A stretch of 10,693 bases of DNA from a virus (Duplodnaviria > Heunggongvirae > Uroviricota > Caudoviricetes). The position numbers were made by a program, and so were the translations under genes. Shown one piece after another: positions 1 through 10,347 of this stretch (position 1 is the first letter of the stretch; each line of letters opens with the position of its first letter). Under the pieces are notes generated by a model. The model did no database searches and had not been told where the DNA came from. It worked only from the letters and a program-made list of their open reading frames with translations. Location of the stretch: the IMG/VR virus record IMGVR_UViG_2585427787_000010; one strand, 5' to 3'.

Positions 1-1119
1 TCAAATAACCAACTTAACCCATTCCTGACCTCGAGTATCGTTATAGCGATCGGTGGTTGCCTGGACTTTATGCCCCAGTAATGTTTTTGTATCGACACCC
101 TGTGCCCGGTACAGCCGTTCTGACAGGGAACGTTGTTCATGAAATGTTGGTGGTGTTTTTCCTGCTGGTGGAATTATTCCAGCCAGGTCCCGTGCTTTGG
201 CAAAGTAATCGCTCAGGTTGTCTTTACTCATCGGCTTCGGTTGTTTCTGGTGCCGACTATGGATTAGATATGGACTTAATATTCTGTCTCGGCACCCATC
301 AATAACTTCTTTTAACGTTATCCCAATGGCATCACAGCGTAGTGTAAGCGGTAACGCCAGACGCATTCCGGTTTTTCCCTGGGTGATATGCAGGTGTTCG
401 TTCCACACATCTGAAAAACGCATGTGGCAAATGTCATCACGGCGCTGACCAGTAACAATCGCAAGAAGCATTGCGTTACGGATAAAGTGTTTTTCAGGCG
501 TTGCGTTGTAAATTTTTTGCCAGTCTTCCAGGGTGAGCCTGGCTCTGGTTACTTTAGGGATCGGTTTACGGGTAGCCTCCGGAGGATTCCATCCAGGAGG
601 AACTTCCCCTGCATGCTGTGCTTCTTTATAAATATCAACCCATAATCCACGATTTACTCTCGCTGTGCTGACCATGTCTTTATCCAGCCACTCATCCAGT
701 ATTAATGCAAAGTCTCTTACTTCCAGTTCTTTCAATGGGTGGTTTCCCAGACGGGAAACCAGGTATGCAGCCATTCGGGCTTTTTCTTTGTGAGTTGTAG
801 TTGCAATATCCCCATTTTTCAGTCGCGTGTCCTGTATTTTCAGATATCGATCAACCCATGCCTTTAATCTGATACCCCGACGTTTTGTTGCTGACGGACT
901 TTCATCAATTTTGCGCATGAAATATTCAGCTTCTGCTGCAGCTATTCGCTGATTGGCTGTGGAAGCGATTTTTTCTGCTTTGCCTTTGTCTGTTCCGAGA
1001 CCGTGAAATTTTCCAGTCACAGGGTTTTTATACTGGTAGTAAACCCTGCCAGTTCTGCGATCAAACTTTTCGTAAAGACCGGTTACGTCAGTGCTGTTTT
1101 TTCGTGGCCTCGGTGACAT
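1..1119 (-). CDS. int: Phage integrase, lambda-type tyrosine recombinase (372 aa)
   Basis: Complete ORF (ATG at 1119, stop at 1-3). C-terminus ...LLGHKVQATTDRYNDTRGQEWVKLVI resembles the lambda Int C-terminus carrying the tyrosine nucleophile. The 5' end is overlapped by an excisionase-like gene, the classic xis-int arrangement. AAGGAG lies about 10 nt upstream of the ATG. Confidence 0.9.
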   Translation of the reverse strand: MSPRPRKNSTDVTGLYEKFDRRTGRVYYQYKNPVTGKFHGLGTDKGKAEKIASTANQRIAAAEAEYFMRKIDESPSATKRRGIRLKAWVDRYLKIQDTRLKNGDIATTTHKEKARMAAYLVSRLGNHPLKELEVRDFALILDEWLDKDMVSTARVNRGLWVDIYKEAQHAGEVPPGWNPPEATRKPIPKVTRARLTLEDWQKIYNATPEKHFIRNAMLLAIVTGQRRDDICHMRFSDVWNEHLHITQGKTGMRLALPLTLRCDAIGITLKEVIDGCRDRILSPYLIHSRHQKQPKPMSKDNLSDYFAKARDLAGIIPPAGKTPPTFHEQRSLSERLYRAQGVDTKTLLGHKVQATTDRYNDTRGQEWVKLVI

Positions 1120-1357
1120 GAGTTAAAATCTCCTTCAGTGCATCATCATCGCCAGTATGAATTTCCGGCGCAATTCCCGTTTCACCAGGTCCAACAAATA
1201 CTGCCCGGCGATCTATCAGCCAACGCCCACGAATTTTTTGTGGTCTTGGAACGATGTATCCTAGTTTTCCGTATTTCACCAGGGTAGTGTTTGTTATTGG
1301 GAGACTGAACCGTTTTGGTTTCCACTCATCGAGCGTTATCAGGTACTGTTCGCTCAT
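1088..1357 (-). CDS. xis: Excisionase, lambda Xis-like (89 aa from ATG 1357; the ORF extends to a GTG at 1366)
   Basis: N-terminus MSEQYLITLDEWKPKRF... parallels lambda Xis MYLTLQEW...; small basic protein; 32-nt overlap with the integrase start; GGAG 8 nt upstream of the ATG at 1357. Confidence 0.7.
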   Translation of the reverse strand: MSEQYLITLDEWKPKRFSLPITNTTLVKYGKLGYIVPRPQKIRGRWLIDRRAVFVGPGETGIAPEIHTGDDDALKEILTHVTEATKKQH

Positions 1358-1418
1358 GGCTATCACTCCGGAACGCGCCAGTTGCAGAATACCAACGACA
1401 ACTGGCGACGGTTGAACA

Positions 1419-3890
1419 TTAAAAATCAGCCTGATTCGGAATCAGTTTTTGCCAGATAGCTGAAACGTATTTTGCCTGGTAACGGGCGTCATCAAGTGCA
1501 TTATGGCGCTCACCTTCGAATGGAATAGCCGTTCTGGCATCGAAGTCTATGGCTTTCCCCAGCTCAACGATTGTGCGTACATCGCGATCGTTGTAGTAAC
1601 GCCACGGGCAGGGGATCCCCTGCCGTTCGTATGAACGGCGCAAAATCGTGTTGTCGAAGTTGGCTCCATTTCCCCAGACCTGAACAAAAAATTCACCGGA
1701 GTTTTCGTCGATAAATTCCCGCAATTGTAACAGTGCATCATCTAACGGGATTTCATCGGTCATAATGGCAGATTGCGCTTCGCGTGATTGCTTAAGCCAC
1801 CATTTAATGGTGTCCCGATCAATGACTCCGCCAGCAGTTTCCAGATCGATAGTCTTACTAAATTCCGGTCCCATATCTCCGGTTTGCGGATCGAAAAATA
1901 TTGCACCTATTGAGATAATCGGGGCATCAGGATTTTTTCCCATGGTTTCAAGGTCGATCATTAGATGGTCACACGTCCTACTGGCGGATGTGATTTCGTG
2001 ATGACCGTTCACCTTAATTGAGTGATCTGCCGTCTCGCCAGTTTCATTATCGCTATTGTGATGCTGATTGCCGCCAGTGTTCTTCTTGTTTGGATGTTCA
2101 GCGCCTTCCATTTCCTCCGGATCATCTTCCTGAACTTCAACCTGATACTCTTCATCGAATGTTTCCTGGTATGTTGCGTCGCCCATCACCGCGCCACAAT
2201 CAGGGCAGTTGCCGCCGCCGGTCTGACCGCAGGCGGTGCAGATCTTTTCCGGTTCCTGTTGCACTACTGGTTCAGGTTGTTTCGTTTCTGGCTCGTTTTG
2301 TTGCGTATTTGGGCTGTTTTGTTCCGCTTTCTGGTCGTTCTGTTCCGATTCTTGCTGGTTCTGGTTTACAGAATCGCGGGTTTCAATCCCCTTTACCCAT
2401 TTCGGATCATTCGGGTCGCTAATCCCTGCAACAAATTCTCCGCGAGAGGCAGCAAGCAACTTATCGGCGTCAGGCTGGCTGATATTGGCTGCCTGCATAA
2501 TTTTGTTTACTTCGTCAGCGGTAACTTTTACCGGCTCTGGTTGTGCGGTCGTGTCAGATGCACCAGTATTTTGTTGTGAACCTGAGTACGTGCCGTTTTT
2601 ACGTGCGAAGTATTCCTCTTTTGTGATTTCCGTAGCTCCCAAGGCTAGTGCTTTTTCCAGACCAGAAAGTTTGTTTGCGCGACCGTATTTTTCGCCATCC
2701 TTGTCGGTGAAGAGGAAGTAGAACGGCCCTTCACGCTCTACAGATGGTTCGACTTCCACTTTGCATTCGGTTTTTTCGTTGTCCGGAATTGCCGTTTCCA
2801 CTGCATCAGTTTCTGGTACTGGCGACGAGAGAGTATCAGTTGCGCTCTGATTTGTTCCTTCATCTTCAAACACGCCCTTTGTAGTCAGGTATTCAGTAAT
2901 GTATTTGTTCAGTGCCACAGGGTCTTTGTGAATGTCGATCGGACGTTCACGGACAAGGCCAAAAATAGTCTGGCGGTCGTAGCGAAGGGCATCAGGCTGT
3001 TTGCGCATTGATGCCGAGATACGCTTCCAGTCTTCGCGGTCGTTGTCGATAACTTCATTTTTTGCCCAGCGATGAATGCTGCCGTCAATGTTTCCGGCAT
3101 CCACATCACCAGGCCAGAGAGCGTAGGCCAGTTCGTCATCCAGTGTTTTCCATGTCTGCTTGTATTCGCGATGAGTGGCAGCAATGACCGGGCTGATTTT
3201 TCCTGTTGAACTTTCAGTGTTCTGTTGATTGGCTCTGGCGCGGGCGAGATCAACAACAGACGTGTATTTTCCGGTTCCCTTGCGTTCACCTTCGCGACGT
3301 TTTTTCCAGATGCGCATCTCTGCCTGAATTTCGGGCCATTTAGCTCCAGGCTTACATTTATGCTTAACCCACCCGATGGCATGCAACTTAAGTTCCGGAT
3401 ACATGGCGTTAACTTCTGGCATTTTCATCAACGCTTCAACGATATATCCGTCGAATGTTGCCATGTCTTCCTGCAACAGTTCCTGTGCACTAATCACCAT
3501 ATCAACGGTGATGTTTTCACATGTGTCGAACTTAACCATGACAGCGTTCTGTACTTCAGGGGCCAGCTTGTCAAAAGTGACGTTCATCGGATTTGATTCA
3601 GTCTCAACCGGGACAAAGGAAGCTGACTCCTCATCCCAGCGGTTTTCCCGCATATATTCAGCATCCCAGGAATCGAGGGCAGGGCGGGGTATACCGGGTT
3701 TATCCTCGCAGACAAGAAATTTATAAGCGCAGTCCTGAGCAGCCGGATATTGCTCCAGGAATTGCCAGGTAAATTTGGCACGGGCGCGGCGTTCGTCACC
3801 GGCTTCAATGGCAGTGGCTACAGCAACTGCACCTTCTTCCTTTATTGCCTGTTCGTCCGGAATGGCGGCGCAAATAAAGACTTTACTCAT
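1419..3890 (-). CDS. Large prophage exonuclease (823 aa): RecE (exonuclease VIII)-like N-terminal/central region, Q/E/P-rich linker with a Cys4 cluster, and C-terminal DnaQ-like DEDDh 3'-5' exonuclease domain
   Basis: Long uninterrupted ORF with ATG at 3890. C-terminal ~190 aa carry DEDDh motifs: Exo I MIDLETMG, Exo II GNGANFDNTIL, Exo III HNALDDARYQAKY. Central CTACGQTGGGNCPDCG has CxxC...CxxC spacing. Position beside xis/int matches a lambdoid recombination module. The RecE-like assignment of the N-terminal part is from memory and tentative. Confidence 0.8.
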   Translation of the reverse strand: MSKVFICAAIPDEQAIKEEGAVAVATAIEAGDERRARAKFTWQFLEQYPAAQDCAYKFLVCEDKPGIPRPALDSWDAEYMRENRWDEESASFVPVETESNPMNVTFDKLAPEVQNAVMVKFDTCENITVDMVISAQELLQEDMATFDGYIVEALMKMPEVNAMYPELKLHAIGWVKHKCKPGAKWPEIQAEMRIWKKRREGERKGTGKYTSVVDLARARANQQNTESSTGKISPVIAATHREYKQTWKTLDDELAYALWPGDVDAGNIDGSIHRWAKNEVIDNDREDWKRISASMRKQPDALRYDRQTIFGLVRERPIDIHKDPVALNKYITEYLTTKGVFEDEGTNQSATDTLSSPVPETDAVETAIPDNEKTECKVEVEPSVEREGPFYFLFTDKDGEKYGRANKLSGLEKALALGATEITKEEYFARKNGTYSGSQQNTGASDTTAQPEPVKVTADEVNKIMQAANISQPDADKLLAASRGEFVAGISDPNDPKWVKGIETRDSVNQNQQESEQNDQKAEQNSPNTQQNEPETKQPEPVVQQEPEKICTACGQTGGGNCPDCGAVMGDATYQETFDEEYQVEVQEDDPEEMEGAEHPNKKNTGGNQHHNSDNETGETADHSIKVNGHHEITSASRTCDHLMIDLETMGKNPDAPIISIGAIFFDPQTGDMGPEFSKTIDLETAGGVIDRDTIKWWLKQSREAQSAIMTDEIPLDDALLQLREFIDENSGEFFVQVWGNGANFDNTILRRSYERQGIPCPWRYYNDRDVRTIVELGKAIDFDARTAIPFEGERHNALDDARYQAKYVSAIWQKLIPNQADF

Positions 3891-4013
3891 TTTGTTTTAA
3901 CCTCATGACAGATTTAAGGATGAACAAATCCCTGCCATTGCTGGCATATAAGAATCAAATCTGATGTATTCATTAAGCTGAATGTCGTATTGTGGCAGTT
4001 ATTTTATTACTGC

Positions 4014-4235
4014 TCACCATGACTCTGCTTTTACAGGTAAACCATCACGACCAAGGAAGACTTTAATCATGGTTTCCTTAATACAGTGTTGTGTGGAAAA
4101 ATCACGAATATAGAGCCGTTGTTTTTTAATGTTGTTTACCGAAGCAATATATGTTCTTCCTTTATGAATAACATAATCACCGGGAGTCACGCACTGACGA
4201 GGAATCTCATCAGTTCCGAAGTGATGAGCAATCAT
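4014..4235 (-). CDS. Small protein (73 aa) at the dicB/kilR position downstream of DicF; possible KilR-type cell-division inhibitor (tentative)
   Basis: ORF begins MEIIM...; the second ATG (4235) has a good SD (GGAG, 6-nt spacer) and gives 73 aa, the size of Rac KilR. It lies immediately downstream of the DicF-like sRNA, where Qin has dicB and Rac has kilR. The sequence does not match my recollection of DicB. Function is inferred from position and size only. Confidence 0.5.
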
Positions 4236-4409
4236 AATTATCTCCATTTTTACAAATGAACTTTGTTGATGCGGTGCCTGGTGCCTCCAGGTGACGTTAA
4301 CCAGTTAACAATTAACGCCGGATACAGAGAACCCACCCATAACACTGTTTTTGGTTTTAACTGTTCCGCGTGCGCTCAGCCGCATTCACCGCATCACAAA
4401 ACTCACTTT

Positions 4410-4467
4410 AAAAAGGGCGGCAGACCAGTCACGGAGTAAAACTGATACCGCCAAACGTCACCAGAAA
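4410..4467 (-). ncRNA. dicF: DicF-like small regulatory RNA (prophage sRNA that targets ftsZ mRNA in E. coli)
   Basis: Minus-strand sequence UUUUCUGGUGACGUUUGGCGGUAUCAGUUUUACUCCGUGACUGGUCUGCCGCCCUUUUU matches E. coli DicF as I recall it, with about one difference. It ends in a GC-rich hairpin (GGCGG...CCGCC) followed by U5, an intrinsic terminator. It sits in an ORF-free region of the leftward operon. Confidence 0.75.
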
Positions 4468-4801
4468 ATTGATAACAGAGGGCGTTGCAGCGGGGTTGTC
4501 ACTTAAGCGTATGGTCAACCTGACAACCCGGTGTCCTCAAGGGGGAAGAAATACCCCCGCCATACTTACCGCCGCGCCATTTCGCGGAGTGCCACAACCG
4601 GAAGCGCACGGTCGACGAAAATTTAACGACAGGCTATCTATGAACCAGCTACCTCGCCGTGCGCTTTCGCGTTATGGTCTGACTTTTCAGGGAAATATCC
4701 TTTCAGTAAACTGTCAGTGCCGGATGCTCACCCGTGTCCGGCGCACGCACTCCACCTCACCCGTGGAGAACTCCTTAATCACCAACCCTCAGGAGGGTGA
4801 A

Positions 4802-5077
4802 ATGTCGACTGAAAATGATGAAATCATTAACTCCCTGATACGCCAGATTAATAATTTTGATAAAGCATTGCAGCATGCTGCGGCGCGTAGTGATATAACT
4901 CTTTTAGCAATTTCATTTCTTGCATCTGTAATGGATAAAAATGAAGTCGTACGACAGAGTCTTGTTGATTATATCGACTCGCTTCAACCAGGCACTTTCA
5001 ATCATGAGAGCTTCAATCATGAGAAAGAGCATGTTAAATCTGTAATTAATTCTCTTGTTTTGAATCAAAAGAATTAA
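4802..5077 (+). CDS. Hypothetical small protein (91 aa), antisense-oriented moron inside the leftward early operon
   Basis: Strong SD AGGAGGGTGAA immediately before the ATG at 4802; AT-rich coding sequence; predicted intrinsic terminator about 25 nt after the stop. The upstream in-frame extension (4469-4801) is GC-rich and Arg/Pro-rich and looks non-coding. The protein is helical with an FNHESFNHE repeat and no recognisable family. Confidence 0.6.
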   Translation: MSTENDEIINSLIRQINNFDKALQHAAARSDITLLAISFLASVMDKNEVVRQSLVDYIDSLQPGTFNHESFNHEKEHVKSVINSLVLNQKN

Positions 5078-5375
5078 TGCTTTTTGTTGCAAGGTGATTT
5101 TCAAGGGGTTCTATTCGAATCCCTTTCTTTTTCATTAACAAGCCAAACCCCTTATCAATGATGTCCATTAGATCCAGGAAGTATTTTTCATGTAAATCCA
5201 GGTTATCAGAGAGCTGCTTCTCTTCGTACAGACCGATAAAGGCACGACGCACGTTACCGGATATAGTATCGATGGTTTCTTTTTCTACGGTACTCAGGTC
5301 AAGAGTCGCCAGTTGGGAACGAACTATATTCGCTGCCATTTCCTGGAATTGCATTGGTAAATCTTTAAATTCCAT
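5046..5375 (-). CDS. Hypothetical acidic helical protein (109 aa); 3' end overlaps the convergent 4802-5077 gene by 32 bp
   Basis: ATG at 5375 with GAGG about 7 nt upstream; AT-rich composition matching the neighbouring plus-strand gene; occupies the position of the small ydfB/ydfC or ydaG-type early genes. The ORF runs through the plus-strand terminator hairpin, so the true 3' end is uncertain. Confidence 0.5.
   Translation of the reverse strand: MEFKDLPMQFQEMAANIVRSQLATLDLSTVEKETIDTISGNVRRAFIGLYEEKQLSDNLDLHEKYFLDLMDIIDKGFGLLMKKKGIRIEPLENHLATKSINSFDSKQEN
5103..5132 (+). terminator. Putative Rho-independent terminator for the 4802-5077 gene
   Basis: Imperfect stem (AAGGGGTTC / GAA(T)CCCTT) with a 5-nt loop, followed by CTTTTT on the plus strand. 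Confidence 0.45.
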
Positions 5376-5397
5376 TATTAGCCTCGTTGGTTAGCTA

Positions 5398-5616
5398 TTA
5401 ACGCGGGCATGTAATCATTCTGGCAATGCTTAATGCCGCTGCTTTTTCCAGCCTGGTGATATCCTGCTCCAGAGCGGACAGATTTTCAGCCTGCTTAGCC
5501 TTGGCTTCATTGGCCCATTTCAGATCCTGCGCTGCATTAATTTTCTGGCGCATCCACTCATAAAGTTCATCATCGGTATAGTCTGGCGCGATGATGACGG
5601 GTTCTCGTTTCTGCAT
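5398..5616 (-). CDS. Small early-operon protein (72 aa), YdfA/YdaF-like (DUF1391-type), first gene after the PL-like promoter
   Basis: ATG at 5616 preceded by GAGGAA; motif ...YEWMRQKINAAQDLKWANEAKAKQAENLSALEQDI... resembles the small Rac/Qin early proteins as I recall them. Position is directly downstream of the repressor, as for ydfA in Qin. Confidence 0.6.
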   Translation of the reverse strand: MQKREPVIIAPDYTDDELYEWMRQKINAAQDLKWANEAKAKQAENLSALEQDITRLEKAAALSIARMITCPR

Positions 5617-5812
5617 ACTGATTCCTCGCGGTGCTGTTTCCCCTTAACGCCGGGGTAGCGGAACAAAAACCTGCTGCATAGTTATTAAAGTTGAACCCTG
5701 CCGTCATGTTCTTACGCCTCGGGCTGGCTACTTAACCCCTGACCACTGCCTGGTAACTCGAAGTATTGCCCTGCATTCTGTGGGGCGGGGTGGGTTGGTA
5801 TGAAAAGAAGGA

Positions 5813-5849
5813 TACCCATAGGTATTTAAAAAGTAAATACCTATGGGTA
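5813..5849. promoter_or_regulatory. Perfect 16-bp inverted repeat with 5-bp spacer, containing two TACC-N4-GGTA dyads; candidate OL-type operator and/or terminator of the repressor transcript
   Basis: tacccataggtattta-aaaag-taaatacctatgggta is directly readable. It lies between the repressor stop (5892) and the leftward early genes, with T-rich flanks on both strands. The same TACC-N4-GGTA motif recurs in the repressor/cro divergent region. Confidence 0.55.
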
Positions 5850-5891: not shown

Positions 5892-6311
5892 CTATGATGC
5901 GTTTTGTGCTTTCTTTTTACGGATTTCTTCGTAGATCATATTGTAATACTGTTTTTTCTCTTCAAGAGTTTTTAATAATTTATCCGCTTCACTTTCTGGC
6001 AGTTCGTCTAAGAGATCTAAAAAAATACGTTGTCGTGGCGTTAGAACCCTTGTTTCATAACTGGAGGCTGTGTTCGTTGATGATGAAACGATACCATCCA
6101 TCCATCCCCGGGGTAACCCAAAGGACTCTTCGATAATCTCCACCATATCATCAGCGATCCGTTTTTTTCCCTTTTTCCCCTCTGGGTACAACATTCTTGA
6201 TACATAAGAAGGCTCGCGCCCGATCTTTCTGGCCACGTTAACCGCTTTACCATCGCATTTCTCATCACGAATTTTGATGAGTTGCTGTCGTCTAAATTCA
6301 TATTTGTCCAT
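5892..6311 (-). CDS. Prophage immunity repressor, DicA/RacR-like HTH protein (139 aa), without a peptidase S24 domain
   Basis: HTH-like segment NVARKIGREPSYVSRML; C-terminal LTPRQRIFLDLLDELPESEADKLLKTL resembles the DicA C-terminus (..LELLELFNALPESEQD..) as recalled; divergent from a Cro-like gene. No Ala-Gly / Ser...Lys LexA-type cleavage motifs are apparent. Confidence 0.8.
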   Translation of the reverse strand: MDKYEFRRQQLIKIRDEKCDGKAVNVARKIGREPSYVSRMLYPEGKKGKKRIADDMVEIIEESFGLPRGWMDGIVSSSTNTASSYETRVLTPRQRIFLDLLDELPESEADKLLKTLEEKKQYYNMIYEEIRKKKAQNAS

Positions 6312-9000: not shown

Positions 9001-9323
9001 ATATCGACGCAACAATGACGATTGGTACGGCCCTCAATACGGGGCTGGCGCTTCTTGGTTGGTGCTACATCATGTTCTGCTCATGGCGGTGGCTGTCACT
9101 GATGTTACTGAAAGAATGGAATAAACGCTGTAAACAGACGCAGCGGCAGAAGGCAATGAATGCGTTTTTTGAGACCTTCGATATTGACAGTATAGAACCA
9201 GGAGAGCCAGCTCGCGTGATTAGCAGAGGTGACGTTGTAATTCTTGTATACCGGAGTGAAGAGAAAGCAGTAACCGGCTCATTTAAACCGTCTGGTCTGT
9301 TTCCTCCGGCTCTACAAAAATAA
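8997..9323 (+). CDS. Small membrane protein (108 aa) with one N-terminal transmembrane helix
   Basis: GTG start overlapping the upstream stop, after GGAGGAGG; hydrophobic stretch IGTALNTGLALLGWCYIMFCSW; a hairpin (tgtccat-N8-atggaca) lies just after the stop. Confidence 0.55.
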   Translation: MNIDATMTIGTALNTGLALLGWCYIMFCSWRWLSLMLLKEWNKRCKQTQRQKAMNAFFETFDIDSIEPGEPARVISRGDVVILVYRSEEKAVTGSFKPSGLFPPALQK

Positions 9324-10000
9324 TGTCCATCATTTTTAATGGACACTATCGTATGAAACACCGGACCTGGATCACTGAAGCTTTACGTCTTCACTTTGAA
9401 GAACATTTACCCCGGGTTGTGGCCGGGCGTCGCCTGGGTGTACCAAAATCAACAGTTTGTAGTATGTTCGTGCGCTTTCGGAGAGCTGGCCTTTCGTGGC
9501 CTTTGCCCGCAGGCATGTCGGAGCAGGAACTTGATGCCTGCCTTTACGGACAATTTTCCACGGTACCAGTCGTACGTCCTGAAAGCACCGTTATATCCGA
9601 AGCCCCCGTGGTAAAAAAACGTCCCCGGCGGCCCAACTTCCCTTATGAGTTTAAAATCGCCTTAGTGGAGCAGTCACTGCAGCCCGGAGCCTGTGTGGCG
9701 CAGATCGCCCGGGAAAACGGAATCAACGATAACCTGCTCTTCAACTGGCGCCATCAATACCGGAAAGGTGGCCTGCTGCCTTCCGGAAAAAATATGCCGG
9801 CACTGCTTCCCGTGACGTTAACGCCGGAGCCGGATAATAAAATCCCGGCCCCCGCACAGGAACCAGAGCAGATAAATACACCGTCCGACAGTCTGTGTTG
9901 TGAGCTGGTTCTGCCGGCCGGAACTCTCAGGCTTAAAGGTAAACTGACGCCGGCGTTATTACAGACACTTATCCGCGAAATAAAAGGGAGCAGCCACTGA
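9323..10000 (+). CDS. tnpA: IS66-family TnpA (orf1)-like protein; true start uncertain (the N-terminal ~90 codons may belong to a different, disrupted gene or be an extension)
   Basis: C-terminal two-thirds (..KKRPRRPNFPYEFKIALVEQSLQPGACVAQIARENGINDNLLFNWRHQYRKG..) has the HTH-transposase pattern typical of IS66 orf1. The N-terminal part (RLHF...GLSWPLP...) looks like a separate IS21-IstA-like HTH. A possible GTG start at 9608 has no clear SD. Confidence 0.6.
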   Translation: MSIIFNGHYRMKHRTWITEALRLHFEEHLPRVVAGRRLGVPKSTVCSMFVRFRRAGLSWPLPAGMSEQELDACLYGQFSTVPVVRPESTVISEAPVVKKRPRRPNFPYEFKIALVEQSLQPGACVAQIARENGINDNLLFNWRHQYRKGGLLPSGKNMPALLPVTLTPEPDNKIPAPAQEPEQINTPSDSLCCELVLPAGTLRLKGKLTPALLQTLIREIKGSSH

Positions 10001-10347
10001 TGATATCTCTCCCTGCAGGTTCGCGTATCTGGCTGGTTGCAGGTATCACCGATATGCGAAATGGCTTTAACGGCCTGGCATCAAAAGTTCAGAACGTCCT
10101 GAAGGATGACCCGTTCTCCGGACACCTGTTCATCTTCCGCGGACGCCGGGGTGACCAGATAAAAGTGTTGTGGGCTGACAGTGACGGACTGTGCCTCTTC
10201 ACCAAACGCCTGGAGCGGGGCCGCTTCGTCTGGCCAGCCACCCGTGACGGCAAGGTGCACCTTACTCCGGCTCAGTTATCCATGCTTCTTGAAGGTATCA
10301 ACTGGAAGCACCCGAAACGAACGGAACGCGCTGGAATCCGCATATAA
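10000..10347 (+). CDS. tnpB: IS66-family accessory protein TnpB (orf2), 115 aa
   Basis: MISLPAGSRIWLVAGITDMRNGFNGLA...HLFIFRGRRGDQIKVLWADSDGLCLFTKRLE is characteristic of IS66 Orf2; its start overlaps the TnpA stop (TGATG). Confidence 0.9.
   Translation: MISLPAGSRIWLVAGITDMRNGFNGLASKVQNVLKDDPFSGHLFIFRGRRGDQIKVLWADSDGLCLFTKRLERGRFVWPATRDGKVHLTPAQLSMLLEGINWKHPKRTERAGIRI

Follow-up and report, generated by a model that had tools for sequence, protein, structure and literature searches.

The locus described here lies in a 10,693-nt stretch of DNA (the window) from a virus of the Caudoviricetes (IMG/VR record IMGVR_UViG_2585427787_000010) and comprises two small convergent genes, a plus-strand gene for a protein of 91 residues (Y91) and a minus-strand gene for a protein of 109 residues (X109). 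Both ORFs were confirmed at 4802-5077 (+) and 5046-5375 (-), as a first-pass annotation of this DNA had placed them, together with their 32-bp 3' overlap (Table 1). The length of the overlap holds for this copy and not as a general feature, most related copies having a 106-aa X and a 23-bp overlap. The same annotation had described an AT-rich island at this point, and the description is borne out: the GC content is 38.1% across the 590-bp island, 34.8% in the Y91 gene and 38.5% in the X109 gene, as against 55.3% in the adjoining leader (4470-4787) and 48.5% in the whole window. The Qin prophage of K-12 lacks exactly this segment, window positions 4255-4787 and 5378-5640 being contiguous there by BLAST. 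Meaningful inverted repeats bounding the island were considered and dropped: by eye, the translation-initiation regions of the two genes show only a weak 13-bp resemblance, which is absent from the repeat search output.

Y91 runs antisense within a leftward early operon, as had been proposed, the flanking genes for the repressor (5892-6311), YdfC, X109, DicF and a KilR-like protein all being on the minus strand. Two neighbours needed renaming. The small early gene taken to be ydfA-like is really ydfC, the window containing neither ydfA nor ydfB, and the gene to the left of DicF encodes a KilR-type FtsZ inhibitor and is not dicB. The kilR-kilS region of Rac is 82% identical in nucleotide sequence to window positions 3999-4420, and the dicF leader is 96.8% identical to that of K-12. 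A long untranslated region inside the dicBF operon contains dicF (PMC5069750). The element that hosts both genes is a lambdoid E. coli prophage of the Qin/Rac type. Elsewhere, the slot between ydfC and the dicF leader is empty (K-12), holds X alone, or holds X together with one plus-strand ORF, which may be Y91, Y73, Y77, Y92 or Y100.

Table 1. Features of the Y91-X109 locus and its surroundings (window coordinates).
Feature	Position	Strand	Basis and remarks
KilR-type FtsZ inhibitor, downstream cargo of the leftward operon	4014-4247	-	NCBIfam NF008465 (E 2.3e-41); phrog_294
DicF sRNA	4415-4466	-	Rfam RF00039 (74.2 bits, E 2.8e-15)
Leader of the dicF precursor transcript (long untranslated region), GC-rich and conserved	4470-4787	-	left border of the slot
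Predicted sigma-70 promoter for Y91	4684-4712	+	-35 TTTTCA, 17-nt spacer, -10 TAAACT; inside the conserved dicF leader
GC-rich stem-loop, predicted 5' end of the Y91 transcript	4717-4744	+	fold of 4716-4804: -37.1 kcal/mol, z = -3.6
AT-rich accessory island, 590 bp	4788-5377		indel relative to K-12 Qin (BLAST; GC)
Shine-Dalgarno sequence AGGAGGG of Y91	4791-4797	+	4-5 nt upstream of the ATG; read from the sequence
Y91, 91-aa coding gene, hypothetical (WP_000102679.1), predicted three helices	4802-5077	+	ATG; ORF, RefSeq CDS
15-bp tandem repeat encoding FNHES	4997-5024	+	direct repeat D2; copy number differs among strains
16+16-nt palindrome across both stop codons, 3'-3' overlap joint	5045-5078		inverted repeat I2, 88% complementary
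X109, 109-aa early-left-operon protein (WP_000394533.1, phrog_6937)	5046-5375	-	ATG; N-domain residues 1-55 + C-terminal module C1
Intrinsic terminator of Y91	5103-5135	+	inside the X CDS, antisense of ...MKKKGIRIEPL...; terminator scan
ydfC, right neighbour of the slot	5398-5616	-	RefSeq annotation; phrog_1744 (E 1.4e-38)

X109 is readily assigned to a family, residues 1-107 aligning with positions 1-107 of the 124-position phrog_6937 profile (E 1.6e-67). Its N-domain is common to phrog_1363, 2151, 9419 and 33007, and the X family as a whole, which occurs in Stx phages too, joins a conserved N-domain of ~55 aa to interchangeable C-terminal modules. A homologue search with the N-domain alone returned fragments only. 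The AF2 model of X109 is helical (pLDDT 64), and no membrane-spanning segment was seen on inspection of either this model or that of Y91. The palindrome across the two stop codons folds at -10 kcal/mol, and in alignments and BLAST comparisons X109 looks like X124, a longer family member, with its tail exchanged at this palindrome.

The coding status of Y91 calls for more argument, as the ORF might be an accidental open frame in AT-rich DNA, the minus-strand gene alone being real. Y91 matches no Pfam family at E <= 0.1 and no NCBIfam family, and its PHROG match to the Y92 family phrog_18692 is weak (hmmscan E 0.018, 9-88 on 6-89 of 92), so that by sequence it appears to be a distant relative of that family and not a clear member. 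The frame also stays open for 111 codons further upstream, with some annotators calling a 145-aa protein. An ORF of 91 aa or longer turns up in 3.4% of shuffled islands; none of 5000 shuffles has one on each strand. Against an accidental origin, dN/dS relative to an 85%-identical allele is 0.31 in the Y91 frame, the lowest among the six frames. All 35 full copies have an intact Y91, indels occurring in them solely as in-frame 15-bp units, and there are two alleles, differing at 40 sites, with an open frame in every copy. The proteins of 86, 91 and 96 aa correspond to one to three copies of the FNHES repeat, the reading frame always being kept, and in the AF2 model (pLDDT 72.8; helices 2-43, 48-60 and 68-84) the repeat coincides with the loop predicted to join helices 2 and 3. 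Two homologues are full-length and collinear, Y92 at 28% identity (BLASTP E 5e-6) and P0199 at 38%, and conservation between Y91 and these proteins is least at third codon positions. A consensus ribosome-binding site (RBS) stands at the correct spacing, and PGAP annotates Y91 in 198 genomes. Judged by these signatures in the sequence, Y91 is a genuine protein-coding gene, and a chance ORF is highly improbable.

N-terminally extended versions of Y91 (202 or 145 aa) were set aside, since the extension corresponds to leader sequence that is kept even in the absence of a downstream Y gene; they are also disfavoured by the RBS and the ATG at 4802, which are common to four different ORFs. A profile built from the Y91 alignment and run against 1.84 billion representatives recovered one new relative, P0199 (E 8.8e-5); two long proteins with repeated partial matches to the profile were taken as spurious. 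Neither Y91 nor P0199 has a relative among GTDB species representatives, tblastn with Y91 and Y92 against 50,697 phage records gave no match, and metagenome contigs yielded near-identical copies only.

The strong Shine-Dalgarno sequence and the dedicated terminator that had been ascribed to the plus-strand gene are both present. The junction CAGGAGGGTGA(A)ATG is also identical ahead of Y73, Y77 and Y92 in other prophages; these ORFs begin at the position of the Y91 ATG behind the identical RBS, and share its leader and hairpin as well. The terminator consists of a hairpin at 5103-5125 followed by UUUCUUUUU (-11.6 kcal/mol, z = -4.1), the T-run being found on the plus strand only, with none following the hairpin on the minus strand. 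The AAGGGG...CCCCTT stem and T-run also occur inside the homologous C1 module of two other loci, L003 and L161. The predicted promoter scores 9.9 with a position weight matrix, where the 99.9th percentile of window positions is 6.0, and was not listed by a simple consensus scan; both hexamers are invariant in 15 loci and the spacer is variable. The sequence that hosts the promoter is conserved in Y-less prophages too, including K-12. Because this leader is conserved even without Y, it could be the dicF precursor RNA that the conservation of the promoter serves. In L161 the corresponding position is occupied by a different promoter-like element, which is AT-rich. The sequence of the 5' hairpin is conserved across all loci, L161 included, and a third hairpin (4779-4800) partially covers the RBS of Y91.

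Such conservation bears on the idea that the plus-strand RNA or its transcription is what matters, not the protein, with the Y ORFs merely riding along. The antisense promoter in the dicF leader might drive convergent transcription into X and ydfC and so damp toxic leftward read-through (DicF, Kil or DicB) in the lysogen, or the antisense RNA might act against related superinfecting phages; as a precedent, the antisense RNA STnc6030 of BTP1 confers exclusion (PMC7067206). The promoter-like hexamers and 5' hairpin are conserved even without Y, in X-only prophages and in K-12, and the plus-strand terminator within C1 is kept in Y-less X124 loci, as seen in L004, which retains homology to window positions 5056-5640. 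In addition, the predicted transcript, from 4719 to ~5130, would be antisense to the final ~85 nt of the X mRNA. However, Y91 is constrained at the protein level (dN/dS of 0.31, in-frame indels only, homologues at 28-38% identity), and a strong RBS is kept ahead of four different ORFs. Both the coding constraint and the RBS would be superfluous for a role of the RNA alone, and an RNA effect would therefore be at most an additional layer; as the whole explanation, it is very unlikely.

A survey of the slot in related prophages, which the first-pass annotation had suggested, found five alternative plus-strand ORFs, X alone, or nothing. Among 5426 complete E. coli genomes, 4339 (~80%) match a query containing the leader (window 4400-5620) and so carry a dicF-type prophage region, and 1358 (25%) carry the X N-domain. 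Y77 is present in 650 of these genomes, the O157:H7 lineage included, Y91 in 198, Y92 in 127, Y73 in 88 and Y100 in 65; from these counts, about a fifth of complete genomes have one of the five Y ORFs, as do about 80% of those bearing X. Apart from Y92, the homologue of Y91, the slot ORFs show no detectable similarity to one another. A slot so hypervariable, with five alternative plus-strand ORFs, fits accessory cargo. The earlier suggestion of cargo at this position holds for the island, which is an accessory insert; the minus-strand gene is not rare, its N-domain occurring in 1358 of 5426 genomes.

The two genes had also been proposed to form a two-gene module. All five Y types converge on an X gene and overlap it, by 11-77 bp, and among X proteins whose C-terminal type is other than C1, each type comes with a Y of its own (X135-Y77, X133-Y92 and X122-Y100). 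On these grounds X and Y may be a functional pair, in which lysogen-made Y91 would bind and neutralise the C1 module of X, either its own or that of an incoming related phage. The pair could take the form of an antidote to leaky X resembling a toxin-antitoxin (TA) system, of homotypic superinfection immunity, or of an abortive-infection trigger on imbalance. Helix 1 of the X N-domain evolves fast (dN/dS 0.65-0.84), as expected under molecular conflict. Further support comes from L161, where the immunity region differs (Cox-like, HTH and integrase genes) and the gene for P0199, the 38%-identical homologue of Y91, converges on and overlaps by 41 bp the gene for an HTH protein of 214 residues. 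The C-terminal 36 residues of this HTH protein are 42% identical to residues 64-99 of X109 (Smith-Waterman z = 12.7), and conservation in both L161 genes is of the protein type, with third codon positions least conserved. Here too, a remote relative of Y91 converges on a protein ending in C1, which makes some X-Y coupling possible, and persistence of the Y homologue and its partner's C1 tail over such deep divergence is better explained by a functional pair than by packing at random.

Several observations count against the pair. An obligate module is contradicted by the many prophages and Stx phages in which X stands alone, among them Stx phage PA2, whose X-like gp25 has no convergent partner, and C1-type X is found with Y91, with Y73 or without any Y. 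X124, which bears C1, is commonly without Y (20 of 21 IMG/VR loci) or faces Y73, for which hhalign shows no relationship to Y91. Opposite Y91 and Y92, which are homologous, stand X proteins without detectable similarity between their C-termini. Part of the C1 conservation (MKxKG....PL) is the antisense of the Y terminator stem and T-run, so that physical linkage alone could hold C1 and Y together. X and Y also lack any match to a toxin-antitoxin or defence family in Pfam, NCBIfam or PADLOC. A functional pair is thus possible, though unlikely. One-to-one covariation of the X C-terminus and Y was rejected outright, given the occurrence of X124 with Y73, with Y91 or with neither and the dissimilar C-termini opposite Y91 and Y92.

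Searches of Pfam, NCBIfam and PADLOC with both proteins and eight allelic partners gave no functional lead. PADLOC-DB v2 returned only noise-level matches, to BrxA for Y91 (E 0.014, 12.8 bits) and to HerA for X133 (E 0.025), and nothing for the remaining alleles; no SieB model in Pfam or PHROGs matched Y91. PHROG matches for X and Y were confined to families of unknown function, and sequence-profile searches of the PDB found no match giving function. Foldseek yielded no E below 1 for either model against the PDB or for Y91 against BFVD, with models of pLDDT only 64 (X109) and 73 (Y91). Structure prediction and profile searches, the course recommended by the first-pass annotation, have therefore produced helical models and no function-giving match, and its exclusion or abortive-infection reading draws no support from PADLOC, Pfam, NCBIfam, PDB sequence searches or Foldseek with any allele. 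The literature searched by accession number contains no transcript, protein or phenotype data for either gene, and that on dicF, Qin, Rac and kilR does not mention them. Y91 and X109 are uncharacterised helical proteins encoded in an accessory slot whose contents are exchangeable; a role in defence, or one exercised as a pair, is hypothetical.

The reading that we favour, with confidence somewhat above even, is that the locus contains two separable units, a Y91 moron cassette and an early-lytic accessory gene X, packed at a recombination hot spot. The hot spot would be the interval that separates ydfC from the dicF leader in this lambdoid prophage of the Qin/Rac type. X109 would be an ordinary member of a widespread early-left-operon accessory family with exchangeable C-terminal modules, co-transcribed leftward with ydfC, DicF and Kil once the prophage is derepressed. 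Y91 would be a self-contained moron on the opposite strand, with its predicted promoter, 5' stem-loop, RBS and ORF, and with its terminator inside the last third of X. Since it points against the early-left operon, Y91 is most likely produced while the prophage is repressed and silenced by convergent transcription after induction, a lysogen-on, induction-off logic that would match that of Rac sieB in the same slot. Being a small, cytoplasmic, three-helix protein without a catalytic signature, it most likely works through contact with a protein partner. The anatomy of the locus, the coding status of its genes, their polymorphism and the equivalence of position with sieB are shown directly, whereas use of the promoter, lysogenic expression and any phenotype are inferred. 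The 3'-3' overlap would be a by-product of cassette splicing, X109 probably being an X124 in which sequence antisense to the Y91 end took the place of the disordered tail.

A bolder and quite doubtful extension would make the slot a dedicated plug-in site, in which a fixed antisense promoter, hairpin and RBS drive any small ORF that recombines into place, the Y products, a set of undescribed small proteins expressed in the lysogen, act on X C-terminal modules, and each combination of X tail and Y constitutes a phage-versus-phage exclusion or immunity pair. This extension counts five ORFs of four sequence types. Were Y91 and its counterparts made in lysogens, they would be candidate small exclusion or immunity factors, or brakes on the toxic DicF/Kil/DicB operon, and the shared leader and RBS would amount to a compact instance of cassettes being exchanged at one fixed expression site of a phage genome. 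If they are ordinary accessory genes without phenotype, the locus is one more mosaic joint of lambdoid prophages.

The arrangement resembles that of sieB, the superinfection-exclusion gene of Rac, which is also found in lambda and P22 and lies antisense within the early-left operon. The first-pass annotation had noted the equivalence of position, and it stands: sieB is on the opposite strand between small early genes and the KilS sRNA and kilR. In K-12 Rac, sieB (+) is flanked by ydaG and ydaF (the latter of DUF1391) on one side and KilS/kilR (-) on the other, and it converges on ydaF, the two overlapping by 4 bp; Y91 (+) is flanked by ydfC/X and by DicF plus the kilR-like gene (-), and the flanking kil regions are homologous. 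The likeness is one of position, however. The two genes share no sequence similarity, their upstream (promoter) regions are not homologous, SieB has 162 residues in contrast to the 91 of the predicted soluble, helical Y91, and no exclusion phenotype is known for Y91.

X and Y also resemble type I toxin-antitoxin systems and STnc6030 in being convergent, with complementary 3' ends, and in residing in a prophage, where the strand expressed in the lysogen would face a lytic-strand mRNA. They differ in that both encode proteins and evolve under purifying selection, neither product is a small hydrophobic toxin, and the overlap is variable (11-77 bp). A type I system is further contradicted by the Y dN/dS of 0.31, the membership of X in a protein family and the helical models, and a type II system by the convergent orientation, the lack of a TA family match and the frequent occurrence of X alone. 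Family membership brings no mechanism to the comparison, as phrog_6937, 1363, 2151 and 9419 (X) and phrog_18692 (Y92) are all of 'unknown function'.

Lambdoid morons are autonomously transcribed accessory genes such as bor, lom and rexAB of lambda and gp15 of HK97. The term is used here as in PMC7067206. The Y91 cassette departs from this type in that its border falls exactly at the start codon, Y73, Y77 and Y92 reusing the leader, hairpin and RBS, and in that its terminator sits within the CDS of the gene on which Y91 converges. It resembles morons in being present or absent between otherwise collinear prophages (198 of 5426 genomes, as against 4339 leader matches), in its deviant base composition, in having its own terminator and perhaps its own promoter, and in an orientation opposite to that of the surrounding lytic genes.

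The window comprises the left arm and immunity region of a Qin/Rac-type lambdoid prophage (see the feature table). In the K-12 dicBF operon, ydfA-ydfB-ydfC precede a long untranslated region with dicF inside, followed by dicB-ydfD (PMC5069750); compared with this layout, the 590-bp AT-rich island at 4788-5377 occupies the very start of the dicF-containing untranslated region. Relative to K-12 Qin and to L001, the closest RefSeq relative, about 300 bp with ydfB and ydfA are missing, with a junction near 5640 (5637-5664), so that ydfC becomes the first gene after the repressor-proximal control region; the early gene previously called ydfA-like is this ydfC. In place of dicB, a Rac-type kilR lies to the left of DicF. 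Identity of 82% to Rac extends over 3999-4420, covering kilR and the 3' part of KilS, an sRNA, and because this homology ends at the DicF terminator, the window is a Qin/Rac hybrid with DicF in place of most of KilS.

Features of the window, with coordinates and strand
Feature	Coordinates	Strand	Remark
Integrase	1-1119	minus	
Small DUF4224-type gene		minus	between integrase and exonuclease genes
823-aa exonuclease	1419-3890	minus	Rv2179c-like domain
KilR-type FtsZ inhibitor	4014-4247	minus	
DicF sRNA	4415-4466	minus	Rfam 74.2 bits
GC-rich leader	4470-4787	minus	adjoins island
Y91	4802-5077	plus	91 aa
X109	5046-5375	minus	109 aa
ydfC	5398-5616	minus	
Repressor	5892-6311	minus	
Cro/YdaS-like and YdaT-like genes, replication genes		plus	

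Several further observations concern the prophage as a whole. Between DicF and kil (4262-4399, minus strand) lies a match to the STnc100 sRNA below threshold (37.7 bits, gathering score 47, E 3.4e-6). A perfect 16-bp inverted repeat (5813-5849, loop of 5 nt) lies shortly downstream of the repressor gene; it scores as a terminator on both strands and is overlapped by a predicted promoter-like site for the leftward operon (-35 at 5837, -10 ending 5809). After the replication genes, the prophage is interrupted by ORFs of 225 and 115 aa (9323-10347, plus strand) that resemble, as judged by eye only, the first two ORFs of an IS66-family element. In one relative (L010, NZ_CP195449.1, the 195-kb plasmid p23AR0151A), the whole left arm from int to the replication genes, including Y91 and X, is plasmid-borne rather than chromosomal.

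Sequence comparison with K-12 Qin, in which 4255-4787 is joined directly to 5378-5640, shows that precisely 4788-5377 is lacking in that prophage. Located at a hot spot, the island represents an indel, and the same gap is filled differently across prophages (second table, with X and Y forms named by length in aa). Y73, Y77 and Y92 start at the same ATG position as Y91, preceded by an identical CCTCAGGAGGGTGA(A)ATG. This fixed leader, hairpin and ribosome-binding site common to Y91 and three other ORFs appear to be undescribed in the sources searched. Among 5426 complete E. coli genomes, and counting BLAST hits rather than curated types, a leader-containing query (window 4400-5620) finds 4339 and the X N-domain 1358, with Y77 in 650, Y91 in 198, Y92 in 127, Y73 in 88 and Y100 in 65. 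Y100 (100 aa, phrog_8894; L014 3293-3595 and L018) has its own, different ribosome-binding-site region with a strong predicted promoter-like site directly upstream, and PGAP leaves it unannotated in five of five listed genomes.

Other occupants of the slot between ydfC and the dicF leader
Content	X/Y overlap	Found in
X124 alone	none	L004, L015, L016
X124 + Y73	11 bp	L003
X135 + Y77	23 bp	O157/O145 strains and sequenced phage Evi
X133 + Y92	41 bp	L011-13, L017, L019
X122 + Y100	77 bp	L014, L018

Several lines of evidence establish that Y91 codes for a protein. In a divergent allele (40 differences, 85% nucleotide identity) the frame stays open, with dN/dS = 0.31, the lowest among six frames, and the gene is intact in all 35 full-length island copies extracted from IMG/VR and RefSeq loci. 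Its length varies solely through a FNHES repeat that changes in 15-bp steps (86, 91 or 96 aa); AlphaFold2 places the repeat in a predicted loop and models three helices (2-43, 48-60, 68-84) with moderate confidence (pLDDT 72.8). Y92 is a collinear homologue (28% identity, E 5e-6), and an exhaustive profile search yielded one further family member, P0199 (38% identity), whose identity to Y91 by codon position is 0.40, 0.64 and 0.32, the third being least conserved. Opposite-strand ORF pairs of at least 91 aa each arose in 0 of 5000 shuffles of the island. RefSeq lists both products, WP_000102679.1 (Y91) and WP_000394533.1 (X109), as hypothetical proteins. The Y91 frame is also open for 111 codons upstream of its ATG, across the GC-rich dicF leader (4469-4801, plus strand), which is why some annotations give products of 145 aa or longer; this extension is regarded as non-coding, the leader being conserved even where no Y gene follows.

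All features described in the first-pass annotation were found in the window, with three details corrected. Both ORFs are AT-rich (GC 34.8% for Y91 and 38.5% for X109, versus 55.3% in the adjoining leader), and Y91 has a strong Shine-Dalgarno sequence (AGGAGGG, 4791-4797) and its own terminator, formed on the plus strand by a hairpin (5103-5125) and a trailing U-run (-11.6 kcal/mol, z = -4.1). The 32-bp overlap holds in the window but not in most related copies, where a single base change, at once V86I in Y and Q107stop in X, shortens the minus-strand protein to 106 aa and the overlap to 23 bp. A position-weight scan predicts a Y91 promoter with -35 TTTTCA (4684), a 17-nt spacer and -10 TAAACT ending at 4712, scoring 9.9 against 6.0 for the 99.9th percentile of window positions; a simple consensus scan of the window does not list it. 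Across 15 loci neither hexamer changes, although the spacer and the sequence upstream do, and the promoter sequence is also conserved in Y-less prophages, K-12 included. With initiation about 7 nt further on, the predicted transcript would have a GC-rich stem-loop of 11 bp (4717-4744) at its 5' end. The matching segment of a distant locus, L161, differs in sequence, but it too is AT-rich and has good -10 hexamers shortly before this hairpin. A short hairpin inside ydfC that resembles a plus-strand terminator (TGGCAATGCTTAATGCCG with a T-run, 5421-5438) is kept in the window, L003 and L005, and could halt antisense transcripts where the Y cassette has no terminator of its own.

X109 is a mosaic of a shared N-domain and variable tails. 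Its full-length match is to phrog_6937 (E 1.6e-67); the first ~55 residues recur in phrog_1363, 2151, 9419 and 33007, whose C-terminal parts differ, and a ISGNVRRAFIGLYEEK core is invariant in the alignment. Within the N-domain, helix 1 (5215-5354, codons 8-30) diverges strongly between subtypes (dN/dS about 0.65-0.84), with invariant flanking motifs; comparison of the window with L007 and the protein P0077 gives two versions, MQFQEMAANIVRSQLATLDLSTVE and KEIQTIAATALGDSLVKIDPAYTK. Judged by sequence, X109 and X106 resemble a 124-aa form in which the antisense of the Y91 end has replaced the last ~15-18 codons, the tail joint lying within a 16+16-nt palindrome (5045-5078) that holds both stop codons. 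The AlphaFold2 model of X109 is helical, at low confidence (pLDDT 64). An early-operon protein of Stx2a phages, e.g. PA2 gp25, carries the N-domain at 46% identity, and there the convergent partner gene is absent.

On the two-gene module previously proposed, the evidence points both ways. Roughly four-fifths of X-bearing genomes have one of five Y types (by subtraction of census counts), and L161 retains a Y homologue and an X109-type tail together: P0199 follows the dicF-leader hairpin seen in the window and overlaps by 41 bp the convergent gene of a 214-aa HTH protein. The final 36 residues of this protein match X109 residues 64-99 at 42% identity (Smith-Waterman z = 12.7), and identities of 0.67, 0.61 and 0.42 at the three codon positions mark the conservation as protein-type. 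L161 (Logan SRR5508307 contig, 1-4029) has a different immunity region, with a Cox-like regulator, an HTH repressor and an integrase. However, X124 lacks a Y in 20 of 21 IMG/VR loci and stands alone in several complete genomes; one X C-terminal type occurs with Y91, with Y73 (unrelated to Y91 by hhalign) or with no partner; and the homologous Y91 and Y92 face X C-termini without detectable similarity. Moreover, the motif MKxKG....PL of C1, the C-terminal module of X109, is the antisense translation of the Y terminator stem (AAGGGG...CCCCTT) and T-run. This terminator lies inside C1 in the window, L003 and L161, and since it is physically linked to the Y cassette, part of the co-inheritance is explicable without pairing. 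A true X-Y antagonist pair is the less likely, rival reading. A Y terminator written into its partner's coding sequence appears undescribed in the sources searched, and the ORF overlap is probably a packing by-product.

The suggested defence or abortive-infection role finds no direct support: Pfam, NCBIfam and PADLOC scans of all X and Y alleles gave no family above noise, PDB sequence profiles and Foldseek searches (both models in PDB, Y91 also in BFVD) gave nothing with E < 1, and a literature search by X/Y accessions found no mention in the papers covered. Database names are all "hypothetical" except one "dGTP triphosphohydrolase" label on Y77, taken as a misannotation. Y91 is most probably a self-contained accessory cassette transcribed against the early-left operon, an antisense placement characteristic of prophage accessory loci (Owen et al., PMC7067206). 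From that orientation, its expression would be expected in the repressed lysogen, with convergent transcription shutting it off upon induction. That the antisense transcript itself damps the toxic DicF/Kil operon or excludes relatives, an RNA-level role, is a second rival and seems unlikely. Being small, predicted to be soluble and helical, and without an enzymatic signature, the Y91 protein most likely works through protein binding, the sole specific candidate target suggested by the data being the C1 tail of X-type early proteins. X109 itself probably serves as an accessory protein of the early lytic phase, transcribed together with DicF and Kil.

The Y91 and X109 proteins themselves are uncharacterised; elements of this kind, morons that occupy the sieB slot of lambdoid prophages next to a mosaic early gene, are already known. 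The sieB-equivalent position was correctly recognized from the outset, as the identical slot in Rac holds sieB, which has the same design as proposed for Y91, lysogen-made and silenced by convergent transcription.
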